A DNA stretch of 64,000 nucleotides from positions 1,313,759 to 1,377,758 of the forward strand of contig OZ245333.1 of assembly GCA_965226195.1 (NCBI GenBank), read 5' to 3'. The notes beneath the pieces are model-generated. The model saw nothing but the letters and a program-made list of their open reading frames with translations. It ran no database searches and was not told the DNA's origin. Made by a program: the position numbers and the translations under genes. Below are positions 41,084-58,109 of this stretch, piece after piece; position 1 is the stretch's first letter, and each line of letters begins with the position of its first letter. This stretch comes from Oligoflexales bacterium. GTDB lineage: Bacteria > Bdellovibrionota_B > Oligoflexia > Oligoflexales > JAPPIL01.

Positions 41084-41740
41084 TGATGGCATAGTGTCTG
41101 CTAATACCTATATCCATCTTTGCGGGCGAGGGTTGTTGCGACTTTGTTGCATAACTCAGGGCAGGCATGTTTATATCCTATAACCCTTTAGCAGTAAGAA
41201 TTTTATAGGTGTTGCAAAGGTAATGCTTGCACTACGCACAAGCCCATAGTGTCCACAGAAGTTGACAATGGTCAGGTGCAAGCAGACCTGCAAACCATTT
41301 CACGCCAATGCTTCAGCTGGAGCTAGGAAGCGACAAAGAGCATGCACACATGTGTGCATGCTGCAGCAGGATGATTGCACCTGACCCAAACGAGAAGTCT
41401 GCGAACACGCAGGGGTGTGGAGCTAGGCGTGCCTTCGGGCACGCCTTTGGCAAAGAGCCGCGCAAAGCGGGGAGGGGAACGCCAAACGGAGCGAGACAAC
41501 ATGCAAGCGTAGCTTGTGATGTTGCGAGCGGAGTGCAGGGGTCAGCGAAGCTAACGCTCCCCGCATAAAAATGCTATGATAACAGCATGTTATAATCAAC
41601 GGAACTTATGCAACAAAGCCGGTTGTTGCGACCTCGGTAGGCTCCTGCCAAGAGGCGCAAGCAAGCCTCGCCCGCATGGGAAAAATGCATAAGTACCATG
41701 CATTATCTGGCAAATACAGCAGACACTATGCCATCACCTT
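41084..41740. mobile_element. outer inverted-repeat-bounded element carrying a nested MITE
   Basis: AAGGTGATGGCATAGTGTCTGCT (about 41087-41109) is the reverse complement of AGCAGACACTATGCCATCACCTT (about 41717-41739). An inner pair GCGGGCGAGG/CCTCGCCCGC is also present. Confidence 0.55.
41140..41620. mobile_element. MITE copy 1 (481 bp) with terminal inverted repeats
   Basis: Left end (G)ACTTTGTTGCATAACT and right end ACTTATGCAACAAAGCC. It is flanked by the direct repeat GGTTGTTGCGA (41131-41141 and 41621-31). It has no ORF and is near-identical to 57653-58058 apart from an extra segment of about 75 bp. Confidence 0.85.
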
Positions 41741-41834
41741 CATTCAGCACAATAAAAAGCAAAGGGCATGCCCCGTCAGGAGCGAGAAAGCGGCAAAGAG
41801 CCTTGCGCTAGCGAGCAGATGAGAAATAACACAC

Positions 41835-42002: not shown

Positions 42003-42101
42003 GTTCAGATCTCCTTTGTGTCAACGCACAGCTATTCTTTGTAGCAGGAGTGCATGTATGATGCAAGCAGGAAATTACAGTGTGCTTGTGCGGAGCGAGC
42101 G

Positions 42102-43625
42102 ATGAGCAAGTGGTTTTGTGCCGCGGAGACGCTGGTAGTTTTCGTACTGGCATGGCTGCTCTTCTACTACTTGCAGTTTACTACCCCATGGATAAGCGGT
42201 TACGACGGCTACTATCACATCAAATATGCTTGGCTGCTACGTGAGCAGGGCATTTTTCAGGAATTCCCGTGGGCGCAATTTAGCTTGTGGAGTGATCATT
42301 TTTCTGACAAGGAGTTCCTCTTTCATGTCTTGTTGATTCCCTTTACCTTCTTTGCTGATTTGGCGACGGGGGTTAAGCATGCCGCGGTGGTGTTTGCTGC
42401 GTTCTTCATCGCTAATTTCAATCTCGTGCTGCGTCTGCATCGCGTGCCGCTACGCTACCTGTGGATAATATTGCTGCTGGTGGCTGGTGATGTGCTACTG
42501 TATCGCTTATGTCTGCCGCGTCCGCATCTGTTGTCGATGAGCTTTATGCTATGGCTGGTGCATGCTACAGTGCGGCAACGCTATTGGCTGTTGGCAGTGT
42601 TGAGTTTTTTCTATGCGCAGTCCTACACAGCTATCCACATGCCTCTGGTGCTGGGGATTATTTTCTGTGCAGGGCAGTTGCTGATGCGAGAGAAACTCAG
42701 CTGGCGATCGTTATCCGTGCCGACAGTGGCAGTACTTGTTTCGTTGCTGGTCTCGCCGTTTTTTCCCCACAATCTGGTGGTGTTCTACGTGCAGAACCTT
42801 GAGCTGGCATGGCAGCAGTTGTTCTGGAACATCAACCTCTATCAAGGCACAGAACTCAAACCGATGTCAACGCGCTACTTTTTTACCTACAATCTGCCAC
42901 TGCTCATGCCATTCGGAGGTGCACTGTATCTGGCGGTGTTGCATCCCAGTAAAGTTAGTCGTGAGAGCAAGCATCTGCTGGCGATGGCGGCGGCCTTTAT
43001 CGTCATGACGATGATTTCAAAACGTTTCGTCGAGTATTCCTACCCCATCGGGCTGCTCTTCTGTGCCTGCTATTGCCGTGATCGTTGGGGTAAGGTCGAT
43101 TTGCGGACACTGTGGTCACAATCCAAGCTAAAGATGGCTGTGAGCGTGCTGCTCATCACAGCCATAGCTGGTGCAAGTGGTGCAGCATCCTATCGCAATC
43201 TGCACCGCGACCTTATCAGTGTAAAACCCTCACGCTACGAACAGGCGGCTAAATTTTTGCAACAGCACACACTTCCCGATACGACAGTTTTCACCTGCGA
43301 TTGGGATGATGCGCCCGAACTGTTTTACTTCAATCACCACAACCGTTACATGATTTTCATGGATCCGCTTTTCATGTATAGCTGGTCGCCGCAAGTCTGG
43401 CATATCTGGATGAAAATTGCTAGCGGGACGGCGGCTGAACGCACGGCAAAAATTCTTTTTAATGATTTAAAAATTCAGTATGGCCTTTGCACGGGTAATT
43501 ACTACAATTTGCGTAAAATTATCGAAAACGATCCACATCTGCATATCGTCTACGAAGACAAAGAGGTCTATGTCTTCAAGGTAACGGCCCCGCCTGTTGA
43601 AGATGCAGCCGAAGAGAGCGACTGA
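42102..43625 (+). CDS. large polytopic membrane protein, possibly a GT-C-type glycosyltransferase
   Basis: More than 10 hydrophobic segments, an early-loop YDGYYH motif and a soluble C-terminal domain. The family assignment is only a guess. Confidence 0.4.
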   Translation: MSKWFCAAETLVVFVLAWLLFYYLQFTTPWISGYDGYYHIKYAWLLREQGIFQEFPWAQFSLWSDHFSDKEFLFHVLLIPFTFFADLATGVKHAAVVFAAFFIANFNLVLRLHRVPLRYLWIILLLVAGDVLLYRLCLPRPHLLSMSFMLWLVHATVRQRYWLLAVLSFFYAQSYTAIHMPLVLGIIFCAGQLLMREKLSWRSLSVPTVAVLVSLLVSPFFPHNLVVFYVQNLELAWQQLFWNINLYQGTELKPMSTRYFFTYNLPLLMPFGGALYLAVLHPSKVSRESKHLLAMAAAFIVMTMISKRFVEYSYPIGLLFCACYCRDRWGKVDLRTLWSQSKLKMAVSVLLITAIAGASGAASYRNLHRDLISVKPSRYEQAAKFLQQHTLPDTTVFTCDWDDAPELFYFNHHNRYMIFMDPLFMYSWSPQVWHIWMKIASGTAAERTAKILFNDLKIQYGLCTGNYYNLRKIIENDPHLHIVYEDKEVYVFKVTAPPVEDAAEESD

Positions 43626-43630
43626 AGTGT

Positions 43631-43918
43631 TTAGTCAGCAAAGAAGACGATATTTTCGCCGTGTTCGGTCAGGTGATAGCGATCGCGCAGCACTTTACGG
43701 GCGTAGCTGCGGGAGTTTTTTATTTTGCTGATTTCGTTGGCAAGGGTGTGGTTCTCGGCTTCGAGTTGGGCAAGTTGTTGTCGCAATACTGTGGCACTGC
43801 GTTCAAGGCGGTACTTGTGGGTCAGCGAACTGCTCCCACGCACGATACCCACGCCGAGTACGATGATGCCGAAAACAAGCAGTAAACGCAAGACATTGCC
43901 CATGCTGCTATTATACAC
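43631..43918 (-). CDS. ftsB: septum formation initiator (FtsB/DivIC family)
   Basis: Single N-terminal TM followed by a coiled coil (LRQQLAQLEAENHTLANEISKIKNS..YARKVLRDRYHL). Confidence 0.7.
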   Translation of the reverse strand: MYNSSMGNVLRLLLVFGIIVLGVGIVRGSSSLTHKYRLERSATVLRQQLAQLEAENHTLANEISKIKNSRSYARKVLRDRYHLTEHGENIVFFAD

Positions 43919-44276
43919 GACACCGCATGCGCATGCCGAGATACTCCTATAAAGTTGTGGATTGCCCTAGAGTAGCGGGGTCTGTTTTACCGCGAGGAAA
44001 GCTCACTCCAGATGATTAGCAGGCGATAGAGGTCTGCAGAGTCATACTATGAGCTAGATGGGTGACGACGACACCACCTAACAGCATTGTAACAGACTAA
44101 TACTACAAGAAAAGCACGTAATTTTTTCCTAAAGTCGGGAGAATACCCAAAAAGTTGGGTGGTACTGTCTCAAGGCTATGTTTGGCGACGAACGGCAACT
44201 TGCAGTAACTTATTGTTGCGCATTCAGTTTCCACCCATGAGGTATAGTCTGGTGCTCACCTAGAAGTCTTGAGCCC

Positions 44277-44293
44277 AGCTTTGTTGCATAACT
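44277..44293. repeat. solo copy of the MITE terminal repeat
   Basis: AGCTTTGTTGCATAACT vs GGCTTTGTTGCATAACT (16 of 17 positions). No element body is adjacent. Confidence 0.6.
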
Positions 44294-44388
44294 GCTCTTG
44301 CTGCTGACTCTATTTTACTATGCCCGCAGCCGCCCACCCAGTTAGTTGTTGACAGATTCTTAGTTTATTGCTACACACCTTTAATGTT

Positions 44389-45372
44389 ATGAGAAAGTTA
44401 TTGCTGCTAACATCTATCACACTGGGAGTAGTTGCCCTTGTTCTGGTGGGGCGCTGGGTAGCTACGTCTTCTGATACCTCCGTGTCAACACCAGTGGTGA
44501 TAGCAGTACCTAACTGGCCTTCAGCACGCGCTAAGGCGCATGTGTTCAAACTAATTATTGAGGATAACTTTGGTATTGAAGTTCAGCTTCGGAACAGCAC
44601 CAACACGGTTATTTTTGAGGGCATGAATAATGGTTCAATGCACGTGCATCCAGAAGTTTGGCTTCCTAATGTGGATAATCTGCGACGAGAGTTTGTGGAG
44701 AAGCGAAAGACTGTACGGCAAAGTCCAAAATCAACTCCAGCCGATCAGAGAATCTGTGTAACTAAAGGGACTGTCCAGCGAACGGGGATTGTTAACTTGC
44801 GCGACCTTTCCGATCCGCGGATGGCGAAGAATTTTGATCGTGATGGTGATGGTCGTGGTGAAATGTGGATCGGTGCTTCGGGATGGTCTTCAACAAATAT
44901 TGAAAAGATTCGTGCTAAATCCTACGGCTATGCTGCTACTATGCAGCTCAGAGAAATGGACGAAGTATTGGCATTAGCACAGCTTGACGCAGCAGTAACA
45001 AAAAAAGATAACATAGTTTTTTACTGTGACTCGCCACACTACACCTTCGTACTTTACGAACTTGTAATTCTTAAAGAAGAGCCACACGATCCTAACCAGT
45101 GGAACATAGTGCAGCCTACGGAAGACCCAGATTGGCTAGAGAGATCGCATGCTCTTACCGCATGGAAGAAAGCTTCTCTCCATGTTTTCTACGCGGCGGC
45201 ACTGGAGCAGTCACATCCTGTGATCGCCAAGATGCTGTCACAGGTGGAATTTGACGGGAAAATGGTTGCAGCCATGAACTACGCTCTCGCGGTAGAAAAA
45301 ACGTCTTCAACAGAATTTGCCCGGAAGTGGGTAACTGAAAATGCTGCTCTTGTAGATAATTGGCTGTTCTGA
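44389..45372 (+). CDS. glycine betaine/osmoprotectant ABC substrate-binding protein (OpuAC-like), orphan
   Basis: Signal/TM MRKLLLLTSITLGVVALVLVG. The pattern AVPNWPSARAKAHVFKLIIEDNFGIEVQL...HVHPEVWLPN is typical of the OpuAC family. No permease or ATPase is nearby. Confidence 0.72.
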   Translation: MRKLLLLTSITLGVVALVLVGRWVATSSDTSVSTPVVIAVPNWPSARAKAHVFKLIIEDNFGIEVQLRNSTNTVIFEGMNNGSMHVHPEVWLPNVDNLRREFVEKRKTVRQSPKSTPADQRICVTKGTVQRTGIVNLRDLSDPRMAKNFDRDGDGRGEMWIGASGWSSTNIEKIRAKSYGYAATMQLREMDEVLALAQLDAAVTKKDNIVFYCDSPHYTFVLYELVILKEEPHDPNQWNIVQPTEDPDWLERSHALTAWKKASLHVFYAAALEQSHPVIAKMLSQVEFDGKMVAAMNYALAVEKTSSTEFARKWVTENAALVDNWLF

Positions 45373-45476
45373 TCAACGTATATATAAGCGTGTGCCTATA
45401 CTAAAACATGGCTGGTATTAGCGCCTTATTTTGCTATAGAGCAGGAAAGTTTTTCGTAATTTGTGGGAGGTTCGTG

Positions 45477-45827
45477 ATGAGGAAAGTGTTGTTGGCTGTG
45501 CTGTTGTGGTAGTCGTGGTGTGGCGTAGTGCAGGCAAATATTGCCAGAGGGATTACACAGGTGTTGTTTCCCGCCTAGCTGAGTTTATTGGAAGCTGCGT
45601 ATGCGGGCTCTGTCAGAGGTGTGCGGATGGCGTTGTGGCAAGGTGCTAGACATTCATGTCCAAGCTTCCTACGGGTATTTGCGTGAGACGCATTACCGCG
45701 ACAATCTGTGCATGCATCGGGTAAGCGCAATGAGTAGAATCTTTGGGCTAGACATGTCGAGATGGTGCGTCTTTTGGTCGATAGTGGTGCTGATTCTAAC
45801 TTGGGCGGCAAAGCACTAGGTGTATAG
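45477..45827 (+). pseudogene. decayed secreted ankyrin-repeat gene (4 in-frame stops)
   Basis: GGGAGG RBS plus ATG. A single frame reads MRKVLLAVLLW*SWCGVVQA...LLEAAYAGSVRGVRMALWQGA...*DALPRQSVHASGKRNE*NLWARHVEMVRLLVDSGADSNLGGKAL. Confidence 0.7.
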
Positions 45828-45908
45828 GTTTTGCATAATTGCAGTTGCTGGGTAAAATGTAAGTGATGCTGTGTGTTTTTGCCGAGAGCTACCGACGTGA
45901 CAACTGCA

Positions 45909-47882
45909 ATGCACACCTTTGACGAAGGCGAAATAGTTTGGCAAGCTGATCCTGAACGCCAGCAGAACAGCAGCATGCATCGTTTTGCCATGTGGCTCAA
46001 CCAGCGCTTTGCTGATAAAGGCTATGATTTTCACAACTACGATGACCTGCACCGCTTCTCGCTCACTGAAGCTGACTTGTTCTGGCGTGCCTGTGCGGAT
46101 TTTTGTGGTTTTATCTGGCAACGCGAGCCAAGCTTGACCTATCGTGACAATGCTGAGGGAATGCGTGGGCGATGCTGGTTTCCCGACGCACGCTTCAACT
46201 ACTGCCAAAACCTGCTGCACCGTGGGGAGGATGATGACATTGCCCTCTACAGCTATGTTGAGGGAGCGGCTAAAATCACCACCATAACGCGTCGCCAGCT
46301 GCGTGATAATGTTGCCCGCTGTGCTGCGGTATTAGGCACGCTGGGAGTACACAAGGGCGATATTGTTTGTGGAGTGCTGTCAAACGTGCCTGCCGCAGTG
46401 GTTGCCGCACTTGCAACTGCCGCGCTTGGTGCGGTGTGGTCGTCCTGCTCGCCCGATTTTGGCGCACAAGGTATCAGCGATCGTCTGGAGCAGATTGCAC
46501 CCAAAGTTATCTTTTTCACCACCGCCTATGTCTATGGACAGAAACGGCACGATCGCCGTGCCGAAATGCAAAAAGTGCTGCGCAAATTTCCCCATAGCCA
46601 TGCCATTGCTGTTTCGCACCTCGACGACGCTGAGGGCACAAGTGATGCCTTGAACTTTGCCGATCTGCTTGCCAATGCTGCCAGCCACGCACTGACGTAT
46701 GCGGAGATGTCCTTCGCCGATCCGCTGTGTATTTTATTTTCCTCTGGCACGACAGGAGTGCCTAAATGCATCGTGCAGAGCGGTGGTGGCACGCTGCTCC
46801 AACACCTAAAGGAACACGTGTTGCATGGTGATCTTGGCCGCGATGATAGACTAATGTTCTACACCACCTGCGGCTGGATGATGTGGAATTGGCAACTTTC
46901 TGCCCTTGCCGCGGGCTGTGCGGTCGGTCTTTATGAAGGCGCACCGCATCACCCCCGCATCACTACACTGTGGGATGTCGTTGACCGCACTGCCAGCACC
47001 GCTGTCGGCATTAGTCCGCGCTACCTCGATCTCTGTGCACAGAAAAAATCCAACTCTATCCCTGCTTTGCCTGCACTGCGCACAATTTTTTCGACAGGTG
47101 CGCCGCTAGGCAGCAATCACTACCGCTATATTTATACTTGTGTCAAAGCTGACGTGCATCTCGTCTCAATTTCTGGCGGCACGGATATTATTTCTTGCTT
47201 CATGCTTGGCAACGTGTTGCTGCCGGTCAGAGCAGGCGAAATTCAAGTCAAAGGTCTTGGCATGGCAGTTGCAGCATGGGATAGCGAGGGTGTTAGCCTA
47301 GTTGATACACAGGGAGAACTGGTGTGCACCGCACCCTTTGTCTCAATGCCGTGTGGTTTTTTGCACGACCCTGACGGCAGCCGTTTTCAGCAGGCGTATT
47401 TTAATTTTTTCCCCGATCGTGATGTCTGGCGACACGGAGATTTTATCACCATCACCGCACATGGTGGGATTCGCATGCACGGCCGTTCCGATGCGGTGCT
47501 CAACCCGCACGGCATCCGCATTGGCACCGCGGAAATCTACCGCCAACTTGAGCAGCTTGACGAAGTTGCCGACGCAGTGGTCATCGATCACCAGCAGGGA
47601 ACAGACAGTAGTATGATCCTGTTCGTCGTGCTCACCAACGCACAACAGCTGGATACAGCGTTACAACAAAAAATCAAGCATACCATCGCCGCTGGTCTCA
47701 CCCCCCGTCACGTGCCGCGCAGCATCGTGCAAGTGCCTGATATACCCTACACCGTCAACGGCAAGAAGATGGAGCTGGCAGTAAAGTGTGTGTTGGCGGG
47801 CGAGCATGTCCACAATCGTGCGGCAATGGCTAATCCACAGGCAATCGATTATTTCACTAAGATCAGCAAAGATTTTGCCTAA
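45909..47882 (+). CDS. acetoacetyl-CoA synthetase
   Basis: AMP-binding family (SSGTTGVPKCIV) with the AACS-type N-terminus (IVWQADPERQQNSSMHRFAMWL...YDDLHRFSL..DLFW). Confidence 0.9.
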   Translation: MHTFDEGEIVWQADPERQQNSSMHRFAMWLNQRFADKGYDFHNYDDLHRFSLTEADLFWRACADFCGFIWQREPSLTYRDNAEGMRGRCWFPDARFNYCQNLLHRGEDDDIALYSYVEGAAKITTITRRQLRDNVARCAAVLGTLGVHKGDIVCGVLSNVPAAVVAALATAALGAVWSSCSPDFGAQGISDRLEQIAPKVIFFTTAYVYGQKRHDRRAEMQKVLRKFPHSHAIAVSHLDDAEGTSDALNFADLLANAASHALTYAEMSFADPLCILFSSGTTGVPKCIVQSGGGTLLQHLKEHVLHGDLGRDDRLMFYTTCGWMMWNWQLSALAAGCAVGLYEGAPHHPRITTLWDVVDRTASTAVGISPRYLDLCAQKKSNSIPALPALRTIFSTGAPLGSNHYRYIYTCVKADVHLVSISGGTDIISCFMLGNVLLPVRAGEIQVKGLGMAVAAWDSEGVSLVDTQGELVCTAPFVSMPCGFLHDPDGSRFQQAYFNFFPDRDVWRHGDFITITAHGGIRMHGRSDAVLNPHGIRIGTAEIYRQLEQLDEVADAVVIDHQQGTDSSMILFVVLTNAQQLDTALQQKIKHTIAAGLTPRHVPRSIVQVPDIPYTVNGKKMELAVKCVLAGEHVHNRAAMANPQAIDYFTKISKDFA

Positions 47883-47958
47883 ACATGTGATCTAACTGTC
47901 ACGTCGAAGCATTTTCTACTCATGCAGTCTACGTTGGCAAAAACTTCACCCTTTATTT

Positions 47959-48612
47959 TTATTTTATTTTTACTTTACCTCTCTCAACCACGTAAATTCT
48001 GGCGGGTGAAAGTTCCCAGTGCTGGTTTTCTTCGGCATTTATGGCAACGGAAACTCGGATGGCAAGCCGTCCGTCGCTGAAAACGCCAGCAACCTCGCCA
48101 TAGAGACGCGCGTCAGCAGACACATCCTGTGCTTCTTCGGCATGTATCAGCTGAGCATCTGCCTTGCGGCCGATGACTGCACTCTTGCCATAGTCACGGT
48201 GATTCCAGACCAGCACCGCCTCGATCTGCTCGACATCGGTAAGCCAGCTATCGATTAGCACCTTATCTGTTACCAGTTCGTCAATACGATAGGCAATGCC
48301 AGCTCGCACACCTTCCAAGCCTTTACGCTGGTAGAGAACAAGTAAATCTTCGTAGTAGTTGATGTCATAGGTGTCTTTGTTGTTCTGATAATCATCTAGC
48401 TCGGAGGAGTAGATGCCATCCCTGATGTCGGTCACAAACAGCAGCAGGTTGTGTTTGAGTAGAAAGTCATTGATGCGGGACAACATCGAAAAACCCACTT
48501 GGCGTTTTAGTGGCATTTGAGTGCTGAGCAGACTGCCGTAAACCATGTAGTTGGCAAAGGCAGGCAACGACAGCAACAACATGATAAAGGCGGCCAGCAA
48601 AAAACGACGCAT
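47959..48612 (-). CDS. hypothetical secreted protein
   Basis: Signal peptide MRRFLLAAFIMLLLSLPAFA. No recognisable domain. It lies inside the segment bracketed by the duplicated synthetase 3' ends. Confidence 0.5.
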   Translation of the reverse strand: MRRFLLAAFIMLLLSLPAFANYMVYGSLLSTQMPLKRQVGFSMLSRINDFLLKHNLLLFVTDIRDGIYSSELDDYQNNKDTYDINYYEDLLVLYQRKGLEGVRAGIAYRIDELVTDKVLIDSWLTDVEQIEAVLVWNHRDYGKSAVIGRKADAQLIHAEEAQDVSADARLYGEVAGVFSDGRLAIRVSVAINAEENQHWELSPARIYVVERGKVKIK

Positions 48613-48665
48613 CTCAACCTCAAAACAATTAGCTATACCCCCCTCCTACAGCACAGTGAAGTAAC

Positions 48666-49269
48666 TTGCAAACAAAAAACAGACTGCTAGACCCTCGGTT
48701 CAAGACTGGCGGTCATTCATATGAGTTGTGGATGGGACTATATCCCCTGCAAGGCGGTGGCCTGTTCAGGGCGATGCAGCGACGGGATGTTGGGGCGGTT
48801 AAATTTTTGCTTAAACATCTTCGTGGTGCGGAGCTTAACACCGTCGTCTGCCGCCGATGTGGGTGACTTTACTCCGTTGCAGTGGGTGGTGCATCGCTTT
48901 CTTTATGGGGTGGCTGATGGCATGTATGAAAACGTAAAACCAGCCAATGAGGAGGACAGGAAAAAATCTTTCAACATTGTCGCTCTGCTACTTGCCAATG
49001 GTGTAAATGTCAATGCCCACGATCGCCATGGCGATGCACCGCTCCACCATGCCGTGCATTTTTTGCACAAGCCTCGCACCGAACTGTTGTTACAGCACAA
49101 CGCCTATGTCAACACTCGCAACAGTGTGGGGGAAACGGTGCTGCATGTTATTGCTCGCGTTGCGAGAGGCTATCGTGGCCGTGCCGAACTTACGGAGTTT
49201 TTGCTCAACGAAGGCGCAAGCTATAGCATCAAAAACAAAACTGCATTTAACATCGCCATCGCCTGCTGA
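48666..49269 (+). pseudogene. ankyrin-repeat gene, probably frameshifted near 48830-48855
   Basis: ANK-like sequence continues across two frames. The first ends ...LFRAMQRRDVGAVKFLLKHLRGAELNTVV, and the second reads AADVGDFTPLQWVV...HGDAPLHHAVHF...VGETVLHVIA. This could instead be an intact shorter gene starting at 48721. Confidence 0.45.
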
Positions 49270-49455
49270 CCTCACGCCGCGGCATGTGTTGCTCAGCAGC
49301 GTGCAAATGCCCGGTATAACCCACACCGTCAACGGCAAGAAGATGTAAGTAGCCGTTAAACGTGCGTTAGAGGGCGAGCATGCTCACAATCGTGCAGCAA
49401 TGGCTAATCCACAGGCGTTAGATTATTTTATTAAAATTAGTGCAGATTTTCTTGA
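49264..49455 (+). pseudogene. relic duplicate of the acetoacetyl-CoA synthetase 3' end
   Basis: Aligns with 47693-47882. The relic reads LTPRHVLLSSVQMPGITHTVNGKKM*VAVKRALEGEHAHNRAAMANPQALDYFIKISADF. The live gene reads LTPRHVPRSIVQVPDIPYTVNGKKMELAVKCVLAGEHVHNRAAMANPQAIDYFTKISKDFA. Confidence 0.85.
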
Positions 49456-49563
49456 CTATGTTGAAAATTAGTATTATTGTCGGGCTTATCGTTGGTTTGT
49501 AGTGCATAATGTAAGTTTATGTCGCAAATCTTTTTTTTAATTTTTAATCAGGAGGTTAAATAG

Positions 49564-50676
49564 ATGATATTTATATTGTTTTTGGTAATTACCTTGTCAT
49601 CTATCGGTGCTCAGGTAAGTGCGGCAACTCCAGATATGGAAACAACAAGAAGAGCGGTAGAGGCGGCACGTGGTGTCTATCGTGCATTGTCTGAGTCTGG
49701 AAAAATTCTAGGCATACAAGGGATGAGTGCGCTGTTGGTCGATGGTTTTCTGCAAAAATTCTGGTGGGAGGAAAGTGCGAGTAGCACTTATTTAGACCTA
49801 CTCAGCAGTACTCGTGCTATTGATGTCAATTCCGACCTCGCTAATGGTCGCACTATCCTGCACGCACTTGCGATAGAGGGGGGACAGAATGACATTGAGA
49901 TGGTGCAGCTTTTCACCAAGTACACGGACACCAAGCTCGATGTGATAGATGACATAGAAGGAGATTCGCCCATCGAACTTGCGGCGAGGAGTGATAACTT
50001 GGTGGTGGTGAAAGCTATGCTGCCAGCTAGAGGCTACAGCGAGGATGAATACAAAAAACTGCTGCAGCTTGCAGTGGAAAACAATAATGCGGAGATGGTG
50101 GGGGCACTTGTAGAATACGGTTACAGTAAACGACATGAGGATAAACAATTGGCCACCTATCCCAATCTTTTCTTGGGTGAGGCATGGGAGACCGAGGTAA
50201 ACGTAGCTGAGATTATTATCAAGCACGGTGGTGATCCTAACTACAAAAAACCTGTGGAAAAGCTGGTCAAACGGTATGCTGGAGTGCCGTCTGATCATTG
50301 GGATGGAAGCTGGCATTGGTTTAGCCATGAAAAATGGCAAGAGGCAGAGCCACTGCGGCAACCTATCTACAATCAGGTAAAAACTCTGCTTGAACGCGGT
50401 GCTGATTTAAGCAAGTCACCGTATATTTTAGATAATATCATGGATAGAGAGATGACCTTCCTGCTGCTCGAACACGGTGCTAAACTCGATCACAAGCGTC
50501 ATCTCAACCAATCTCTGAATTTTTCGCCAGGAAACAACAGTGGCTGGAGTATTATTGTCCGTGATGGAGTCATGTCTCTCAGCGATTCTGATGATGGTAC
50601 TCTGTTCCATGCTTATCTGGAGGCGCAGAAGCAGGAAGCGATACTTGAGCGCTTAGAGAAAACGGAACAACAATAA
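49564..50676 (+). CDS. secreted ankyrin-repeat protein
   Basis: Signal MIFILFLVITLSSIGAQVSA. ANK-like repeats are present (GRTILHALAIEGGQNDIEMVQL, GDSPIELAARSDNLVVVKAML, LLERGADL, LLEHGAKL). Confidence 0.7.
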   Translation: MIFILFLVITLSSIGAQVSAATPDMETTRRAVEAARGVYRALSESGKILGIQGMSALLVDGFLQKFWWEESASSTYLDLLSSTRAIDVNSDLANGRTILHALAIEGGQNDIEMVQLFTKYTDTKLDVIDDIEGDSPIELAARSDNLVVVKAMLPARGYSEDEYKKLLQLAVENNNAEMVGALVEYGYSKRHEDKQLATYPNLFLGEAWETEVNVAEIIIKHGGDPNYKKPVEKLVKRYAGVPSDHWDGSWHWFSHEKWQEAEPLRQPIYNQVKTLLERGADLSKSPYILDNIMDREMTFLLLEHGAKLDHKRHLNQSLNFSPGNNSGWSIIVRDGVMSLSDSDDGTLFHAYLEAQKQEAILERLEKTEQQ

Positions 50677-50732
50677 GTTTTTACCCGATGAGATATTTAG
50701 GCCACCGCGCTCTTGCAAGGTGGCCACCTTTC

Positions 50733-52700
50733 TTACTCCCACCATGCCAGCACCCTTTGAGTAACGGCCGCGACGGTAAAACCAAAATGTTCAGCAAGAT
50801 CGCGGCCCCGCGCACTTTTGCCGAACTGTTCAACACTGATGCATAGCCCCGCATCGCCACGATAACCTTCCCAGCCTTGTGCAACGCCAGCTTCAATTAT
50901 CACTCGTTTGCGCTGTGTTGAGGGCAATACTTGTTCACGATAGGTGCGTTCCTGCTGCACAAAAATTTCTCGACAAGGCATCGACACCACCCGTGTCTGC
51001 AAGTTGTGCTGACGATTAAGGTGCTCGGCAACTTGCAGTGCTAGTGCTACTTCACTGCCAGTCGCGATGCAGAGCAGATCGCGGGCGTTTTCGCCTGCTA
51101 GCACATAGCCGCCGCGAGCAATGTCAGTTCGCTGTTGTGCGGTGCGCCGCAACAGGGGCACGTCTTGGCGTGTCAAGCAGAAAGCCGTGGGCAAAGAAGT
51201 ATTCGCCGCCACTTGAAACATCACCTCTGTCTCCTCCGCATCGGCGGGGCGGATAACATAGAAGTCAGGTATCGCTCGCAAACTCGACAAGTGCTCGACG
51301 GGTTGATGTGTCGGCCCGTCTTCGCCGACAAAAAAAGAATCGTGCGTGAACTCGTGTATTACCTTCAGTCGTTGCAGCGCAGCCAGCCGCAGTGCGGGAC
51401 GCATGTAGTCGGAGAAACACAAAAAGGTTGCGTCGAAGGGCAACATGCCGCCGAACAGGGCAATGCCGTTGACGATTGCCGCCATAGGAAATTCACGCAC
51501 ACCAAAAGCCAAACCCCGTCCGTCACGTTTAGCAGCAGTGAATTCACCGACATAAGTGTTGAAGTCTTGCGTCATGTTCGATGGTTCGAGGTCAGCACTG
51601 CCGCCCATCAAGGTCGGCAAATGCTCGGCATAGTGGCGTAGAATTTTGCCGAAAGCCTTGCGTGTCGCTAGTTTTTCACCTTCCCAAGTGAGAGCAGGCA
51701 CGGCCTCGAAATCAACCGTGGGCTGATAATGTTTGTTCCAGCGTGCGGCGAAGTCTTGGCCGGCTTGTTTTTTGTCAAATTGAGCGTTTTTGTTACGCAC
51801 GAATTCACGCTGCCCTTGCATTTTTTCTTGCCAAAAATCTTGTGCCGCGGCAGGCCAGAAAAATTTTGTCTTACCTTCCACACCAAGTTTTTGCCGACTG
51901 AACTGTGCTTCTTGTGCTGGCAACGGTGCGCCGTGATAACGATGGTCGCCCTCGACCGCGTGTGTGCCCTTACCCATCACTGTGTTGCTAATAATCAGCA
52001 GTGGTTGACGGCGTGCGCTGCGTATCGATGCCAATGCACTCCTGATTTGTGCGTGGTTATGCCCATCGATGGTTACCACCTGCCAGCCAAAGCCAGTGAA
52101 GATTGCCGCGTAATCGTCAGAGGTCACGCGCGCGATCGCACCCGAAATTTGGCGGCAGTTCTTGTCATAAATCCAAGTCAAATTAGATAGGGCGAGATGC
52201 CCCGCATAAGATGCCGCCGCAAGCGTAACACCTTCTTGCATACAGCCGTCGCCGAGCAGTGCGACGATCTGCTGGTCGAACAGCTCTGGGCCAAATTTTT
52301 CGCGCTGATAGAGTGCAGAGATGGCAAAGCCGACTGCCATCGCCGCACCTTGACCGAGCGGCCCTGTCGTGCATTCGACACCGGGTAAGTGTTGTTCGGG
52401 ATGGCCGGGCGTGCGGGAATCGAATTGGCGAAAGTTTTGTAAGTCTTCTACGTTGAGATAACCGATAGCATAGTGCAGGGCGTAGAGCAGCATCGACATG
52501 TGCCCAGCACTCAAGATAAACCGATCGCGCCAGTGCCATTGAGAGTCGTCGGGGTCGTAGCGCAGATACTCGGCGAACAGCAGCGTCGCCAAGTCCATCG
52601 CCGACAGCGCCCCGCCGATATGCCCGCTCTGTGCTTCTTGCACGGCATCGATGACCATCGCCCGCAAGTAGTCGCTTATTTTTTGCAGTGTCATAGACAT
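50733..52700 (-). CDS. tkt: transketolase
   Basis: SGHIGGALSAMDL, GDGCMQEGV (TPP motif). Transketolase-like along its full length (655 aa). Confidence 0.95.
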   Translation of the reverse strand: MSMTLQKISDYLRAMVIDAVQEAQSGHIGGALSAMDLATLLFAEYLRYDPDDSQWHWRDRFILSAGHMSMLLYALHYAIGYLNVEDLQNFRQFDSRTPGHPEQHLPGVECTTGPLGQGAAMAVGFAISALYQREKFGPELFDQQIVALLGDGCMQEGVTLAAASYAGHLALSNLTWIYDKNCRQISGAIARVTSDDYAAIFTGFGWQVVTIDGHNHAQIRSALASIRSARRQPLLIISNTVMGKGTHAVEGDHRYHGAPLPAQEAQFSRQKLGVEGKTKFFWPAAAQDFWQEKMQGQREFVRNKNAQFDKKQAGQDFAARWNKHYQPTVDFEAVPALTWEGEKLATRKAFGKILRHYAEHLPTLMGGSADLEPSNMTQDFNTYVGEFTAAKRDGRGLAFGVREFPMAAIVNGIALFGGMLPFDATFLCFSDYMRPALRLAALQRLKVIHEFTHDSFFVGEDGPTHQPVEHLSSLRAIPDFYVIRPADAEETEVMFQVAANTSLPTAFCLTRQDVPLLRRTAQQRTDIARGGYVLAGENARDLLCIATGSEVALALQVAEHLNRQHNLQTRVVSMPCREIFVQQERTYREQVLPSTQRKRVIIEAGVAQGWEGYRGDAGLCISVEQFGKSARGRDLAEHFGFTVAAVTQRVLAWWE

Positions 52701-53578
52701 AAAGCCTCTTCGCCCTCAGCGACACAGACATCGTACTTGGTCTTGTTGAACCACGTAATCTGACGCTTGGCATACTGGCGTGTGGCGTAGACAATTCTCG
52801 TTGCCAGTTCTTTTTCCTCCAGCTCACCGCGCAGATAGGCGACGACCTGCCGATAGCCGATACTCTGCATCGGCTTTGCCTGTGGCGGGCAGCCACTCGC
52901 CAGCAATGTTTTTACCTCTGCAACCAGCCCCGCGGTGAGCACGTCCCTTGTGCGTGCCTCAATACGGCGATGCAATTCTTCCCGCGCTGGTTTGAGATAG
53001 ATGACCCGCGGCGACAGTTCTTCGCCCACGACCCGCGGCAACTCGTGTCTCGCCTTGCCGCTCACCTGCGCAATCTCAATGGCACGCAACAGCCGCACCC
53101 GATCGGCAGGGTGAATCTGTGCTGCTCGCTGGGGGTCAAGTTTTCGCAAACGCTGTGCCAGCTGGATATTGGTCAGACACTCCATTTCGGTGCGCAAGGC
53201 CGTGTCCGCGGGCGGTGCGTCGTGCCAGTTGTAGCCGAGCAGAGCACGCCAGTAAAGACCGCAGCCACCCACTACCAGTGCCGTGCGGCCACGGGCAAGG
53301 ATGTCAGCAATCACTCCCCGCGCCGCGTTGCGATAGCGTCCTGCACTATAGTCTTCGTGTGCCGCAACACTGTCGATAAGATGATGCACGATCTGACGAC
53401 GTGCTGCGGTATCAGGCTTGACCGCACCGATGTCAAAACCACGATAGACCAGCACCGAGTCGCAGATGACTATTTCCGCATCGAGCTGGGCCGCAAGGCG
53501 CATTGCCAGCGCACTCTTACCCGCGGCCGTTGGGCCGATGATGCCTACTACCCTGTCTTTGGCGTAGACCAAGACCAC
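52691..53578 (-). CDS. miaA: tRNA dimethylallyltransferase
   Basis: P-loop GPTAAGKSALAMRLA and DSVLVYRGFDIGAVKP. It overlaps the tkt start by 10 nt. Confidence 0.93.
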   Translation of the reverse strand: MVLVYAKDRVVGIIGPTAAGKSALAMRLAAQLDAEIVICDSVLVYRGFDIGAVKPDTAARRQIVHHLIDSVAAHEDYSAGRYRNAARGVIADILARGRTALVVGGCGLYWRALLGYNWHDAPPADTALRTEMECLTNIQLAQRLRKLDPQRAAQIHPADRVRLLRAIEIAQVSGKARHELPRVVGEELSPRVIYLKPAREELHRRIEARTRDVLTAGLVAEVKTLLASGCPPQAKPMQSIGYRQVVAYLRGELEEKELATRIVYATRQYAKRQITWFNKTKYDVCVAEGEEALCL

Positions 53579-53756: not shown

Positions 53757-56270
53757 ATGTCCCCTACCTGTAACAGATGTGGTGTTATGTATACCGTCTC
53801 AAAGTATCTAAAATCTTTTCATCTCGAAACGGCGACGGCCTTGAAAGAGCCACTTGCCGAGAAAAATGCAATAAAATTAAATGCTTGTGCAATTAAAAAG
53901 CGTATTGTGTTTCCCTCAGGTCAGGCAACGCTGGCCAGTGACGACCTTGATTTGCAGTCACGTCTCTGGCTGCGCAAGAGCCAGAATTTGCAGAAAGCGA
54001 AGCGAGATGGCTTCGTGTTTATCTCGTTGACTGAGCGTGACACACGTTCCCCCGATTTTTGTCAGGTTGGGATTGAGGCGAAGCTGGTCAAGTCGCTCAA
54101 CCTCGACAACGGCGAGAAGGGCTATCTCGTGCGTGGGGTGCGTCGTATGCTGGTCGCATCGCTGGCACGCAAGGAAGACGGTGGCTATCACTCGGTGGTG
54201 AAGCCAATCGAGAACAGCGCACGCGTATCGTCACGCCGTATTTTGCGACAAGTCAGCAGTTTGCGTGCTTCGCTGTCGAAGTTATTGAAATTAAACGATA
54301 ATATTGACAGCAAGACCCGTGCTTTGCTGTTGAGCAGCACCGAAGACCCGCACCGTCTCTGCGATTTGATCGCACCGCACCTGACCATGACCTACGAGGA
54401 ACAGCTGCCGCTGCTGTCGTTGCCCCAGCTTACTGTTCGCCTCGCACTGGTGAGCAAGTATCTCAACCGTGAGATCGAACTACTGAAGTATTCATCTGAC
54501 ATTCAGAAACAGGTCGAGGAGCAGATTACCGCAGGCGAGCGTGCCAACTTCATCAGAGAGCAAATCAAGACCTTACAGGACGAACTAGCCGATCTTGACG
54601 AGCATAGTTCGGAGGTCAAGAGCCTGACCAACGCGGTGCAGCGTGCTGATTTGCCACCCCGTGTGCGTGAGATTGTCTTCAGCGAACTGGAAAAAATAGA
54701 CCTCGCCCCCTATGGTTCAAGCGAATACATGATTTCGCACCAATACCTCAGCTGGCTGAAAGACCTGCCGTGGCAAAGCAAACCGTTCGTGCTCCCCGAG
54801 CTTGATAAAGCCTCGAAGATACTCAACAAAAACCATTTTGGGCTTACCGCTATCAAGGAGCGTATTCTCGAACATCTGGCGGTTATTATTCACAGAAGAA
54901 AGATCGAGGGGCAGATTTTGCTGTTTGTCGGCCCCCCCGGCGTTGGCAAAACCTCGCTGGTCAAGTCGATTGCCGATGCACTGCAACGTAAGATGGTCAA
55001 GATTTCGCTCGGCGGCATGAAAGAAGAGATCGAGATTCGCGGCCTGCGCCGTACCTACGTCGGGGCGATGCCGGGGCGCATCATTCAAGCTATTAAGCAA
55101 GTCGGCGACAGCAGTGCGGTGATTTTGCTCGACGAACTCGACAAACTTGGCAACAGCGATAAGCACAACGACGTGCAGGCAGCGCTGCTGGAAGTGCTTG
55201 ATTACCAGCATAACAAGGCATTCAAGGATCTTTACCTCGACGTGCCGTTTGACCTGTCCAGTATTCTGTTTGTCGCGACAGCTAACGATAGCAGCACGAT
55301 TCCTGCCACACTGTTGAGTCGCATGGAAGTCGTCGAGCTGTCCTCCTACAGCGATCAAGAAAAAATAAAAATTGCGCAGAAACACCTCCTGCCGCAAATC
55401 AGAAAAAAATTACAGATCGCCCCGCGCCGCTTCAACTTTGACAAGGAGGCACTGCTCGCCGTCATCAAGAACTATACACAGGAAGCGGGTGTGCGACAGC
55501 TACAGCGCAAGATCGAGGACATCGGCCGCAAGGTAATCAGACAGCACGTTGCCTTTCGCCAGGAAATTCCCACCTCTATCAGCGGGGCAAGTGTCAATCA
55601 GCATCTCGGCAAGCCGCTCTACCACGACGAGCCGAACGACTTGACCTTGCCACCGGGGGTGGCTGTCGGGCTTGCTTGCACCGCTTTCGGGGGTGAAATA
55701 ATGTATGTCGAGACTATGCAGATGGCGGACAAAAACGGTGGGCTGTTGCTGACGGGATTGCCGGGCAAGGTGATGCAGGAGAGTGCGGCGATGGCACGCT
55801 CGGTAATTACCGCATTGGCAGAAGAACTTGGCATCGAGGCCGCAAGATTGGAAAACTCGCGCCTGCACGTGCATCTGCCCGATGGTGCAACCCCGAAAGA
55901 TGGCCCCAGTGCTGGCTTGGCGGTGTTGCTGGCCTTGACCAGCCTGCTGACTCGCCGTAAAATAAGAGCAAGCCTTGCTGTCAGCGGTGAGATTACCCTG
56001 CGTGGTCAAGTGTTGCCCGTTGGCGGAGTCAAAGAGAAAATGCTCGCGGCCTTTCGCTATCGCAAAAAAGAAATTGTCTTGCCACGTGCCAATTTGTGCG
56101 ATCTACTTGAAGTGCCAGACGAAGTGCTGCGCGCTCTTTCCTTCTACCCAGTGGCAACCATGCGTGAAGCTCTGGTCTGTGCTCGCCTGTTGCCCGTTGC
56201 CCGTCCTGTGCCTGCACCGCAACGCTTGCGCAAGAAGGACATTCTGGCCCTGCTTGCAGAATCGCAATGA
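53757..56270 (+). CDS. lon: ATP-dependent Lon protease
   Basis: Walker A GPPGVGKTSL and the catalytic PKDGPSAG...GGVKEK Ser-Lys dyad. The start is uncertain because a TTGACA-18-TATTTT promoter-like site at 53710-53739 lies very close to 53757. Confidence 0.93.
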   Translation: MSPTCNRCGVMYTVSKYLKSFHLETATALKEPLAEKNAIKLNACAIKKRIVFPSGQATLASDDLDLQSRLWLRKSQNLQKAKRDGFVFISLTERDTRSPDFCQVGIEAKLVKSLNLDNGEKGYLVRGVRRMLVASLARKEDGGYHSVVKPIENSARVSSRRILRQVSSLRASLSKLLKLNDNIDSKTRALLLSSTEDPHRLCDLIAPHLTMTYEEQLPLLSLPQLTVRLALVSKYLNREIELLKYSSDIQKQVEEQITAGERANFIREQIKTLQDELADLDEHSSEVKSLTNAVQRADLPPRVREIVFSELEKIDLAPYGSSEYMISHQYLSWLKDLPWQSKPFVLPELDKASKILNKNHFGLTAIKERILEHLAVIIHRRKIEGQILLFVGPPGVGKTSLVKSIADALQRKMVKISLGGMKEEIEIRGLRRTYVGAMPGRIIQAIKQVGDSSAVILLDELDKLGNSDKHNDVQAALLEVLDYQHNKAFKDLYLDVPFDLSSILFVATANDSSTIPATLLSRMEVVELSSYSDQEKIKIAQKHLLPQIRKKLQIAPRRFNFDKEALLAVIKNYTQEAGVRQLQRKIEDIGRKVIRQHVAFRQEIPTSISGASVNQHLGKPLYHDEPNDLTLPPGVAVGLACTAFGGEIMYVETMQMADKNGGLLLTGLPGKVMQESAAMARSVITALAEELGIEAARLENSRLHVHLPDGATPKDGPSAGLAVLLALTSLLTRRKIRASLAVSGEITLRGQVLPVGGVKEKMLAAFRYRKKEIVLPRANLCDLLEVPDEVLRALSFYPVATMREALVCARLLPVARPVPAPQRLRKKDILALLAESQ

Positions 56271-57451
56271 ACACGATCCTCTATGCCGATGCCAATGCAG
56301 GCTTGCCCGCCACTGCTCGCCACCTCGATCAGGTTTGCAAACGTCTGCTGGCGGCGGACGGCAACCCATCGAGCGTGCATGTCTTCGGACGCAAGGCACG
56401 TATCGCACTGGAGGAATCACGCCGCTACATCTGCAGCTACCTCAAGATAACACCAGATCAGTTTATCTTTACCTCTGGTGGCACGGAGAGCAATAACCTT
56501 GTCATGCGTGCTCGCCTCACCGCGGGCAAGACACCGCATATCATCTACACCGCAGGCGATCATCCCTCAGTGCGTGCTACCGCGACACACTTGAGCGAAC
56601 AAGGCCTGTGCCGTATCGACAAGATACCCCTCGACCGTGATGGCATTGTGCAACGCGACAAGCTCGCACAGCTACTGTGCGATGACACGGTGCTCGTCTG
56701 CTTGACACATGCTAACAGCGAGACGGGAGTCATCAACGATGTCGTGGCACTCGCACGACTGGTGCAAGACCTTCAGCCCCAAGCACACGTGCATTGCGAT
56801 GCGGTACAGACACTGGGTAAGCTCGATTTGCAGGGTTTTTTCAACGACACCGCCATCGACAGTGCCGCGTTTTCGGCGCACAAGCTTGGTGCATTGAAAG
56901 GCTGCGGCGGTCTCTATATCAAGGACAGTCACGCCTTGTCAGCTCAGCTAAGCGGCGGCTCACAAGAACAGCAGCGTCGCGCCGGCACGGAAAACCTCAG
57001 CGGCATCATTTCCTTCGGTCTTGTCATTGCCGCACTGGAAGAACGACTACCGCGCTGGCAACAGCATGTGCAGCAACTCAAGAACCTCCTGTGCGCCGAA
57101 CTCGCTAACATTCCCAACCTCGTGCTGCACGGCAGCCAAGCACACTGTTTGCTAAACACGGTCAGCTTTCATATCGACGGTGTGTGTGGCGAAGATCTGG
57201 TCTTAGGCCTCGACCTCGCGGGTTTCGCTGTTTCTAGCGGCAGTGCCTGCTCGTCAGGTATCTCCCGCAGCAGCCGTGTCCTCGAGGCGATGGGTTATGA
57301 AGATGATGTTGCCAGCAACGCCGTGCGGGTTAGCTTCACCACCCAAGGCGATCGTCACGACATCGTGCGCATGGCCGAAGTGATACGCACTGTGGTTAAG
57401 AACAGCAGCCCTCAGCAGCGGAGACAAGAGCCTGCTGCACTTAATCACTGA
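56267..57451 (+). CDS. cysteine desulfurase (NifS/IscS-like, class V aminotransferase)
   Basis: PLP-Lys motif SAHKLG and catalytic loop SSGSACSSG. It overlaps lon by 4 nt. Confidence 0.9.
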   Translation: MNTILYADANAGLPATARHLDQVCKRLLAADGNPSSVHVFGRKARIALEESRRYICSYLKITPDQFIFTSGGTESNNLVMRARLTAGKTPHIIYTAGDHPSVRATATHLSEQGLCRIDKIPLDRDGIVQRDKLAQLLCDDTVLVCLTHANSETGVINDVVALARLVQDLQPQAHVHCDAVQTLGKLDLQGFFNDTAIDSAAFSAHKLGALKGCGGLYIKDSHALSAQLSGGSQEQQRRAGTENLSGIISFGLVIAALEERLPRWQQHVQQLKNLLCAELANIPNLVLHGSQAHCLLNTVSFHIDGVCGEDLVLGLDLAGFAVSSGSACSSGISRSSRVLEAMGYEDDVASNAVRVSFTTQGDRHDIVRMAEVIRTVVKNSSPQQRRQEPAALNH

Positions 57452-57652
57452 ACAAAACGACAGGTGCGCCAACAAGGGAGAGTTTGCTGACGCACCAATC
57501 TCCAGCCGGGAATATCGGTCGCACCCGCGCCGGAATTCTATTACCACCCTCTTATTCAAGTGATCGGAATTTTTTAAACTTTTGTAAAAAAATATAATTT
57601 ACTCTTTTTATTTTAAGATGTTATCTGGCTATTTTTTTGACGTGCTCCTACC

Positions 57653-58058
57653 GGCTTTGTTGCATAACTCAGGGCCGGCATGTTTATATCCTATAACCCT
57701 TCAGCAGTAAGAATTTTATAGGTGTTGCCAAGGTAATGCCTGCACCACGCACAAGCCCGTAGTGTCCACAGAAGTTGACAATGGTCAGGTGCAAGCAGAC
57801 CTGCAAACCATTTCACGCCAATGCTTCAGCTGGAGCTAGGAAGCGACAAAGAGCATGCACACATGTGTGCATGCTGCAGCAGGATGATTGCACCTGACTC
57901 AAACGAGAAGTCTGCGAACACGCAGGGGTGTGGAGCTAGGCGTGCCTTCGGGCACGCCTTTGGCAAAGAGCCGCGCAAAGCGGGGAGGGGAACGATCCCC
58001 ACATAAAAGTGCTATGATAACAGCATGTTATAATCAACGGAACTTATGCAACAAAGCC
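57653..58058. mobile_element. MITE copy 2 (406 bp)
   Basis: GGCTTTGTTGCATAACT ... ACTTATGCAACAAAGCC. The interior is near-identical to 41140-41620. Confidence 0.88.
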
Positions 58059-58109
58059 GAGTCAGCCACCCCACATAGCTAGCTGACTCCCTATTTTCGT
58101 GATGCTCGC

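Follow-up and report, generated by a model that had tools for sequence, protein, structure and literature searches.

The gap between the genes for acetoacetyl-CoA synthetase (AACS) and transketolase (tkt) in this Oligoflexales genome holds accessory genes together with a second, decaying copy of the AACS 3' end. We analyzed this locus within a stretch of 64,000 nucleotides (the window) and compared it with that of three strains of the same species and of seven more distant relatives. The arrangement probably reflects the serial joining of two alleles of the locus, both of which brought an AACS end, through homologous recombination and one illegitimate joint. On this reading, the bracket formed by the live end and the relic is a known kind of scar from integrase-free recombination, not a new mobile element.

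The features of the locus are listed in Table 1. The AACS gene (acetoacetate-CoA ligase) likely starts at the ATG at 45909, which gives a protein of 657 aa. It scores 747 bits against the TIGR01217 equivalog (cut-off 520.9; model positions 4-648 of 652), contains AMP-binding domains and has orthologs at 79-96% identity. Between the two AACS ends lie hyp217 and an ankyrin-repeat gene, and both calls of the initial annotation held, including the suspected frameshift: alignment to P0132, an intact homolog, places a +1 frameshift near 48849, and the joined halves are 69% identical to that protein. The ankyrin pseudogene has no signal peptide, and its TGA stop comes from the relic sequence. Homologs of hyp217 share 69-96% identity. 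An exhaustive HMMER search with hyp217 returned only eight weak or moderate relatives, which gave no functional clue, and its AlphaFold model, built from a four-sequence alignment, has a pLDDT of 42. Neither hyp217, nor orf178 (the gene that takes the place of ank370 in strain L089), nor the gene downstream of AACS in L090 matched Pfam, NCBIfam or PHROGs. The downstream cassette genes, which encode signal-peptide-like or ankyrin-repeat proteins, matched no defence or toxin family. Promoter and terminator scans of the locus returned chance-level hits only, and base composition gave no foreign-DNA signal except for an AT-rich stretch upstream of ank370.

Table 1. Features of the AACS-tkt locus (positions in the window)
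Feature	Position	Strand	Basis or remark
AACS, core gene left of the slot	45873-47882	+	TIGR01217, Pfam AMP-binding
Recombination patch inside AACS	47009-47846	+	9.4% divergent from L083, versus 0.48% outside patches
Live copy of the duplicated AACS 3' end	47691-47882	+	Repeat search, in-frame comparison, strain alignment
hyp217, first cassette gene, convergent with AACS	47959-48612	-	Signal-peptide-like N-terminus; conserved orphan
Ankyrin-repeat pseudogene	48732-49269	+	Pfam Ank; alignment to residues 22-198 of P0132 (215 aa)
Joint, apparently illegitimate	49250-49264	+	..AAC ATC GCC ATC GCC / (T)GCTGAC; identical in window, L083 and L089
Relic AACS 3' end	49265-49455	+	Repeat, translation, allele comparison
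ank370, intact ankyrin-repeat gene, second cassette, 3' of the relic	49564-50676	+	Signal-peptide-like N-terminus
Recombination patch at the tkt 3' end	50422-51096		8% divergent from L083
tkt (transketolase), core gene right of the slot	50733-52700	-	3' end in recombination patch

The recurrence of the AACS 3' end as a diverged copy, noted in the initial annotation, was confirmed at about 78% identity: a direct-repeat search of the window recovered it as a 186-nt repeat (47691-47876 and 49265-49450; 79% identity). Compared in frame over 189 nt, the live and relic ends share 77.8% of their nucleotides and 45 of 63 residues. The duplicated end is not due to chance, given the E-values of 8e-25 (tblastn, the 63 aa of the live end against the relic) and 1e-39 (blastn, the L083 live end against the window relic). 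Nor is it an assembly artefact, because the duplication is also present in two independent assemblies (L083 and L089) and because two Logan contigs, L081 and L082, are 100% identical to the window, with L081 spanning the relic.

Both ends encode one conserved C-terminus, including the TVNGKK motif. The last 36 nt of the live end are a 'T-type' allele (..DYFTKISKDFA followed by the stop), identical in the window, L083 and L089, and the terminal part of the relic is an 'I-type' allele (..DYFIKISADFL). The relic is a dead, decaying fragment of an AACS 3' end. Its translation agrees in full with that given in the initial annotation, including the in-frame TAA at 49346-49348, and it carries a 1-nt deletion ahead of the former stop codon. 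Its 16 private substitutions fall 7/8/1 on the three codon positions, 11 of them at columns that are invariant in 11 live alleles. By these signs, the relic evolves without constraint. A second gene-fragment relic lies elsewhere in the window (59049-59194).

The initial annotation had described a 1.4-kb accessory segment and proposed a search for relatives with an empty site. Such sites exist: AACS and tkt are separated by only 4 nt in L084 and 33 nt in L001, and the segment is thus accessory. Its extent had been underestimated, since the DNA missing from these relatives runs from 47883 to 50732 (2.85 kb) and contains the relic midway along rather than at the edge. The contents of the gap differ in almost every genome, the slot measures 0 to 2.9 kb, and all gap genes with a complete N-terminus begin with a signal-peptide-like sequence. 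The architecture of live end and relic is common to the window, L083 and L089, with an identical joint in all three. In the distant relative L087, a homolog of hyp217 (hyp221, 69% identity) abuts the live AACS end at a locus for which neither a relic nor an integrase family is recorded. Likewise, a homolog of orf178 (orf183, 34% identity) abuts the live AACS end in L088. A donor arrangement, with a T-type AACS end followed by hyp217 and an intact ankyrin gene and with no relic, was not found among the compared loci. Only one relic-forming event was counted among 171 AACS loci, so serial displacement is not recurrent here. Metagenome contigs searched with the C-terminal 260 aa of AACS yielded distant AACS only (<=58% identity) and no clade relatives, and an exact-protein search with the 669-aa AACS and with tkt gave no match because gene starts are called differently.

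In order to place the relic, we compared it with live ends from the other strains. The relic is an allele of live ends found in other strains and does not descend from the live end in cis. Its last 33 nt match the live end of L090 at 30 positions and the cis live end at only 23, a mismatch equal to the distance between distant lineages. Over segment 47774-47846, the relic agrees with the L090 live end at 66 of 73 positions versus 57 of 73 for the cis end, and overall it is 83.1% (nt) and 82% (aa) identical to the L090 end versus 77.8% and 73% for the cis copy. L090 carries the I-type allele as its live end on a backbone that is near-identical to the other strains. Even though the backbones of the strains are ~98-99.5% identical, their T-type and I-type ends show differences at 9 of 33 positions. 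Of the two origins offered in the initial annotation, an old event or a replacement end from a different lineage, the second fits these numbers better.

The same comparisons bear on a local duplication, in which one genome copied the 190-nt end, or a longer stretch that includes it, in place and the copies then diverged. Over the first 83 nt of the relic the cis live copy is indeed the best match (32/42 and 35/41), and the live and relic copies both have 'GEH.HNRAAMANPQA' and 'KIS', which are absent from more distant orthologs. However, such a duplication would require changes at 10 of the last 33 nt in the constrained live copy, and no more than 3 differences between the unconstrained relic and the live allele of L090. 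The relic is also nearer to the L090 live end than to the copy beside it, as the initial annotation had asked of anything other than a simple local duplication, and, judged against the empty sites, the DNA that separates the copies is foreign. We consider a local duplication highly unlikely.

The relic has apparently continued to exchange sequence. In L089 its terminus is a different, intact AACS end (..DYFVEIRKNFS followed by the stop), located 13 nt from orf178. Of the first 42 nt of the relic, 14 are not the same in the window and in L089, so further recombination inside the relic is needed. Behind the I-type end lies ank370 in the case of the window relic and a gene of at least 445 aa in L090; ends and cassettes are thus not strictly co-inherited. 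We rejected gene conversion from the relic into the L083 live copy, because the relic-private sites 47777, 47795, 47797 and 47809 were not co-transferred.

On its left side, the relic begins where the ankyrin gene breaks off. Precisely at this border, 17 codons are missing from the ankyrin gene, and the break coincides with an 8-nt microhomology, CCATCGCC, that is common to the ankyrin gene and AACS (..ACC ATC GCC..); the ankyrin side of this microhomology is read from the window sequence and the P0132 protein rather than from the DNA of an intact gene. The joint lies at the microhomology and disrupts unrelated ankyrin sequence. A candidate extension of the homology upstream of the repeat (49210-49257 against 47640-47690) was rejected, as this stretch aligns to P0132 as a canonical ankyrin repeat.

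The initial annotation had likened the bracket to the footprint of an element that enters the 3' end of a gene. A degraded site-specific integrative element, with the live end as attL, the relic as attR, and the integrase and most of the cargo later deleted, would leave this very geometry of live end, cargo and displaced end, and the cargo does consist of accessory genes missing from empty-site relatives. The hallmarks of such an element are nevertheless missing. In agreement with the annotation's own remark that the segment contains no integrase or recombinase, none is found among the ORFs of the window segment, and the Pfam annotation of L083 and L089 reveals none within +/-10 kb, so that the absence extends to all three strains; the closest gene of a mobile element, for a DDE transposase, lies ~9 kb downstream in L089. 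There is no tRNA, tmRNA or Rfam RNA at the locus, and no phage-specific family. The identical short repeats proposed as attachment cores are not att-like: the 5' edges of the two copies share only CATCGCC and GCTG, the 3' edges share no common core, and the best identical run (GTCAACGGCAAGAAGATG) sits inside the repeat, in conserved coding sequence. A discrete element would carry intact cargo to its ends, whereas here the ankyrin gene is cut at the right joint, at the microhomology, and a second, precisely placed deletion would be needed. In addition, the accessory DNA extends past the relic with ank370, and the L087 locus indicates that hyp217 is a normal chromosomal neighbour of AACS. An integrative element is accordingly a very improbable source of the bracket.

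Recombination has also affected the flanking core genes. Over the 16.1 kb compared between the window and L083, 189 of the 256 differences are concentrated in four patches that make up 12.6% of the length. Two of these patches abut the variable slot; the one in AACS ends within the duplicated segment. AACS is a mosaic across the four strains, and so is the tkt 3' end. L084, which co-occurs in the same sample, was considered as the donor of the L083 patches and is unsupported, because the window and L083 are equidistant from it (79.9% each).

Given the mosaic makeup of AACS in the four strains, either the T-type or the I-type end could be native. The same data would fit a mirror image of the favoured order of events, in which AACS with its T-type end, hyp217 and the ankyrin gene were resident, the live end is native, and the relic with ank370 immigrated, anchored in tkt. 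The patch that abuts the slot on the tkt side and the presence of the T-type live end in three of four strains agree with this order, but L090, with its near-identical backbone, has the I-type allele as its live end, and no observation separates the two orders. We regard this order as possible, though somewhat unlikely.

The reading that we favour, serial joining of two allelic versions, can be laid out as follows. Between the core genes AACS and tkt, which are convergent, lies a strain-variable slot for small genes, mostly signal-peptide-like or ankyrin-repeat. With AACS and tkt as homology arms, a version of the slot that is imported could arrive with an AACS 3' allele of its own. In a strain ancestral to the window, L083 and L089, two versions of this AACS-tkt locus would then have been placed in series, neither replacing the other: version 1 would have been AACS with a T-type end, hyp217 and the ankyrin gene, and version 2 AACS with an I-type end, a downstream cassette and tkt. 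One side of the exchange would have been homologous, in AACS or in tkt, and the other would have been an illegitimate joint at CCATCGCC, linking the ankyrin gene to a point 190 nt before the AACS stop. This joint could have formed during DNA uptake or by a later deletion. The expected product is one full-length AACS and an orphaned 190-nt AACS end 1.4 kb downstream with its own cassette attached. The orphan has since decayed, yet it would still serve as a homology arm: in L089, the last 27 nt of the relic and the following cassette were presumably exchanged for another AACS end and orf178. If the joint is recombinational, intact ankyrin DNA is predicted to read ..GCCATCGCC.. at the breakpoint.

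These findings leave the current understanding standing and add one more case to a known class of scars, which is of modest interest. The locus is nonetheless a clean natural case of accessory-gene gain without mobile-element machinery, and it offers a breakpoint resolved to 8 nt, empty sites and four comparable strain variants. It illustrates that live and relic gene ends on either side of accessory DNA are not in themselves evidence of an integrative element, and that a dead gene end, as in L089, can stay active as a recombination arm. Through the slot, an uncultured Oligoflexales-like lineage varies its secreted and ankyrin repertoire between strains. The ankyrin-repeat proteins are eukaryote-like and are candidate host-interaction proteins, and the many secreted ankyrin proteins suggest that the lineage is probably host-associated.

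Several known systems resemble parts of this locus. Replacement-type flexible genomic islands, such as O-antigen and capsule loci, are exchanged via their flanking core genes. As in the AACS-tkt slot, their contents differ in almost every genome and the flanking core ends show raised, mosaic diversity; the slot is, however, very small and carries secreted and ankyrin cargo instead of surface-polysaccharide genes. Islands that target a gene for a tRNA, a tmRNA or a protein at its 3' end and rebuild that end from their own copy also leave live and displaced ends that bracket accessory DNA. Unlike these, the AACS locus has no integrase, att core or element boundaries, its joint truncates a cargo gene, and its cargo is the ordinary chromosomal neighbourhood in another lineage.

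Homology-facilitated illegitimate recombination (HFIR) is described in naturally transformable bacteria (PMC3240628, PMC5361080). It has one homologous side and a second joint at short microhomology, here 8 nt, and it adds foreign genes beside the anchor, as at the AACS locus. The event at AACS differs in being deduced from sequence only, and homologous import followed by a microhomology deletion would give the same product.

C-terminal displacement with orphan 3' modules is known from Rhs, CDI and T6SS effector loci (Kirchberger et al. 2017, PMC5361080), and is also credited, as cited in that paper, to Jackson et al. 2009. There, as at AACS, a constant 5' body gains a new 3' end and the downstream genes linked to it, the old 3' end persists farther downstream as an orphan that lacks a promoter but has its own linked gene attached, no integrase is involved, a homologous anchor plus illegitimate recombination is proposed, and orphans stay substrates for later homologous exchange. 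Unlike those effectors, AACS is a housekeeping CoA ligase and not a polymorphic toxin; it has neither a variable C-terminal toxin domain nor a cognate immunity gene. The locus has a single orphan and no toxin-immunity logic, and its ends have the same function, with no gain from a swap. One could imagine, and we think it rather unlikely, that the AACS-tkt gap and possibly other core-gene junctions are dedicated integrase-free landing pads in which secreted and ankyrin genes are shuffled between strains and displaced ends, as additional homology arms, let cassettes stack, which would make them a housekeeping-gene analogue of the Rhs and T6SS orphan arrays. The second gene-fragment relic (59049-59194) is a hint in favour of such a recurring process. 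The AACS end itself appears to be a passive passenger that is used as a homology arm.

The 3' end of the acetoacetyl-CoA synthetase gene (AACS) is present twice in the window. A repeat search returned a direct repeat of 186 nt with 79% identity (47691-47876 and 49265-49450), and the in-frame comparison of the live end with its decayed second copy, hereafter the relic, gave 77.8% identity across 189 nt, with 45 of 63 residues identical (tblastn of the 63 live residues against the relic, E = 8e-25). The duplicated end reported in the initial annotation is thus borne out, its translation of the relic was reproduced exactly, in-frame TAA included, and its gene calls near the locus hold up. Relative to 11 live alleles, the window relic carries 16 private substitutions (7/8/1 over the three codon positions), 11 of which fall at columns invariant across all live alleles; each live allele has 0-11 private sites, chiefly third positions. 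Together with the in-frame stop and a 1-nt deletion preceding the old stop codon, this pattern shows a dead gene end that evolves without constraint. The relic stop (TAA GTA, 49346-49349) also occurs in strain L089. Strain L083 reads GAA CTA (13438-13441 of its contig) and its relic is therefore an open 54-aa ORF; reversion or a short recombined tract is the likely cause.

Genes and relic at the AACS locus (window coordinates)
Feature	Coordinates	Strand	Remarks
AACS	45873-47882		TIGR01217, 747 bits (cut-off 521)
hyp217	47959-48612	minus	signal-peptide-like N-terminus
Ankyrin ORF, in two frames	48666-48866 and 48721-49269		
Relic	49265-49455		decayed AACS 3' end
ank370	49564-50676		second ankyrin gene, intact
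tkt (transketolase)	50733-52700		convergent

The window contains no tRNA genes, and no Rfam family was found within 44000-53000. Base composition is unremarkable except for AT-rich sequence 5' of ank370.

Among named genomes, the closest are Oligoflexales MAGs (L001, OY282434, and L002, OZ244057, with AACS amino acid identities of 81% and 79%). Closer relatives came from a protein search, and we compared their contigs along with those of two additional members of their 90% cluster. Three strains are conspecific with the window, namely L083 (98.4% identity over 16 kb), L090 (98.2%) and L089 (about 94-96%), and the Logan contigs L081 and L082 match it at 100% identity. The gap between AACS and tkt, which we call the slot, is empty in two relatives, with 4 nt between the two stop codons in L084 (AACS 84% aa identity) and 33 nt in L001. 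All of 47883-50732 (2.85 kb) is therefore accessory. The initial annotation had described a 1.4-kb accessory segment bracketed by the two AACS ends; the DNA is indeed foreign to the empty sites, but it extends further, and the relic lies in mid-segment instead of bounding it.

Slot contents vary in nearly every genome compared. The window and L083 hold hyp217, an ankyrin pseudogene, the relic and ank370, and L089 holds hyp217, a shorter ankyrin remnant, the relic and a gene named orf178. Downstream of AACS, L090 carries an unrelated gene (445 aa or more, N-terminus cut off), and its homology to the window ends precisely at the AACS stop codon. In that position L087 has a homolog of hyp217 together with a 290-aa gene, L088 has a homolog of orf178, and L002 has other genes. 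In their translations, cassette genes with a complete N-terminus have a signal-peptide-like start. The region 5' of AACS (43900-45870, following a DivIC-like gene) is likewise variable: the window carries OpuAC there, L085 has an ankyrin gene, L084 and L087 each have other hypothetical genes, and in L086 and L088 it is empty. In L089 the sequence corresponding to window positions 45401-45800 is unrelated.

The arrangement had been read as the possible footprint of an integrating element, which is unsupported. In L083 and L089, the genes annotated within 10 kb include no integrase or recombinase, the segment's proteins match no phage-specific families (their sole PHROG matches are ankyrin repeats), and none of the identical short repeats envisaged as attachment cores is common to the live and relic copies. 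Nor is hyp217 island cargo in the usual sense: in L087, a distant relative that has no relic, a hyp217 homolog (69% identity) lies immediately 3' of the live AACS. The hyp217 family is tiny and clade-restricted, with only 8 matches in an exhaustive HMMER search; these include repeated matches (4-11 stretches) within giant proteins of 1450-6565 aa, so hyp217 may represent an adhesin-like repeat domain occurring as a separate protein.

The nearest live sequence to the relic is not the adjoining copy. Over 47774-47846 the relic matches L090 and L083 at 66 of 73 positions and the window's own live end at 57; in its final 33 nt it matches the L090 live end (..DYFIKISADFS*) at 30 positions and the adjoining end (..DYFTKISKDFA*) at 23. 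The two kinds of terminus disagree at 9 of 33 positions, as much as distant lineages do, between strains whose backbone divergence is about 0.5% once recombination patches are set aside. The relic is thus allelic to another strain's live end. Duplication in place was rejected, as the constrained copy would have to change far more than the unconstrained one. The earlier suggestion that an old end was displaced, and its substitute came from another lineage, is supported by these affinities.

The ankyrin gene had been called probably frameshifted, and its frame-corrected product (69% identity to residues 22-198 of P0132, an intact 215-aa homolog) confirms a +1 shift near 48849. It lacks the signal peptide and the last 17 codons, and ends (..AAC ATC GCC ATC GCC) exactly where the relic starts; AACS at the homologous point reads ..ACC ATC GCC. 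The 8 nt CCATCGCC are common to both partners (the ankyrin side being read from the window sequence and the P0132 protein alignment), the hallmark of an illegitimate joint formed through microhomology. The window, L083 and L089 share an identical junction, which therefore formed once; in L089 the ankyrin remnant continues in frame into the relic. In the best-supported account, two alleles of the locus, both carrying an AACS 3' end of their own, would have become joined in series. On one side the exchange would be homologous, within AACS or tkt; on the other, the ankyrin gene would have been joined illegitimately at CCATCGCC to a position 190 nt upstream of the AACS stop codon, a joint that may have arisen during DNA uptake or by later deletion. 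A mirror-image version, with the exchange anchored in tkt and the live end native, fits equally well. A rule that each cassette carries its own end is disfavored, since different genes follow the L090-type end in L090 and in the window relic, and this is the only relic among 171 AACS loci examined.

In L089 the relic terminates in a third, intact AACS end (..DYFVEIRKNFS*, TGA), 13 nt from orf178 and in the convergent geometry of L088, where an orf178 homolog adjoins the live end. A donor's live AACS end, together with the gene behind it, therefore recombined onto the relic, either in L089 or, reciprocally, in the lineage of the window, with a crossover between 49347 and 49429, and the relic thus still functions as a homology arm. 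The window and L083 differ at 256 sites over 16.1 kb, 189 of which lie in four patches (2.0 kb in total) that are 8-12.5% divergent, versus 0.48% elsewhere. Two patches adjoin the slot, one ending within the duplicated segment (47009-47846) and one across the ank370/tkt boundary (50422-51096), and the accessory DNA between them is just 0.58% divergent. In the four strains, AACS is a mosaic built from three or more allele classes, and the last 300 nt of tkt share 75-89% identity among conspecifics, versus 90-100% deeper in the gene. The slot flanks thus look like a recombination hot spot. The two other short patches (9-12% divergent) cover the start of a 523-aa orphan gene (42017-42293) and the N-terminal third of AACS (46134-46373).

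Other repeats occur in the window. A second gene-fragment relic (59049-59194) copies 57127-57272, an internal part of a class-V aminotransferase gene (56267-57451), over 146 nt at 89% identity, and sits between tandem paralogous hypothetical genes (58110-58976 and 59242-60156, both minus strand). A repeat of ~320-480 nt (97% identity; 41139-41621 and 57652-58059, with a partial copy at 19700-19832) flanks a 16.5-kb block holding the locus, and the window has 321 extra nt relative to L083 at 41460-41780. A 45-nt tandem repeat array (63237-63676) lies in a 216-aa minus-strand ORF (63006-63656) without a Pfam match.

The scar serves as a caution, and it marks a small slot for effector-like cassettes. 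As a recombination scar, the locus is of an already known kind and would not surprise a specialist.
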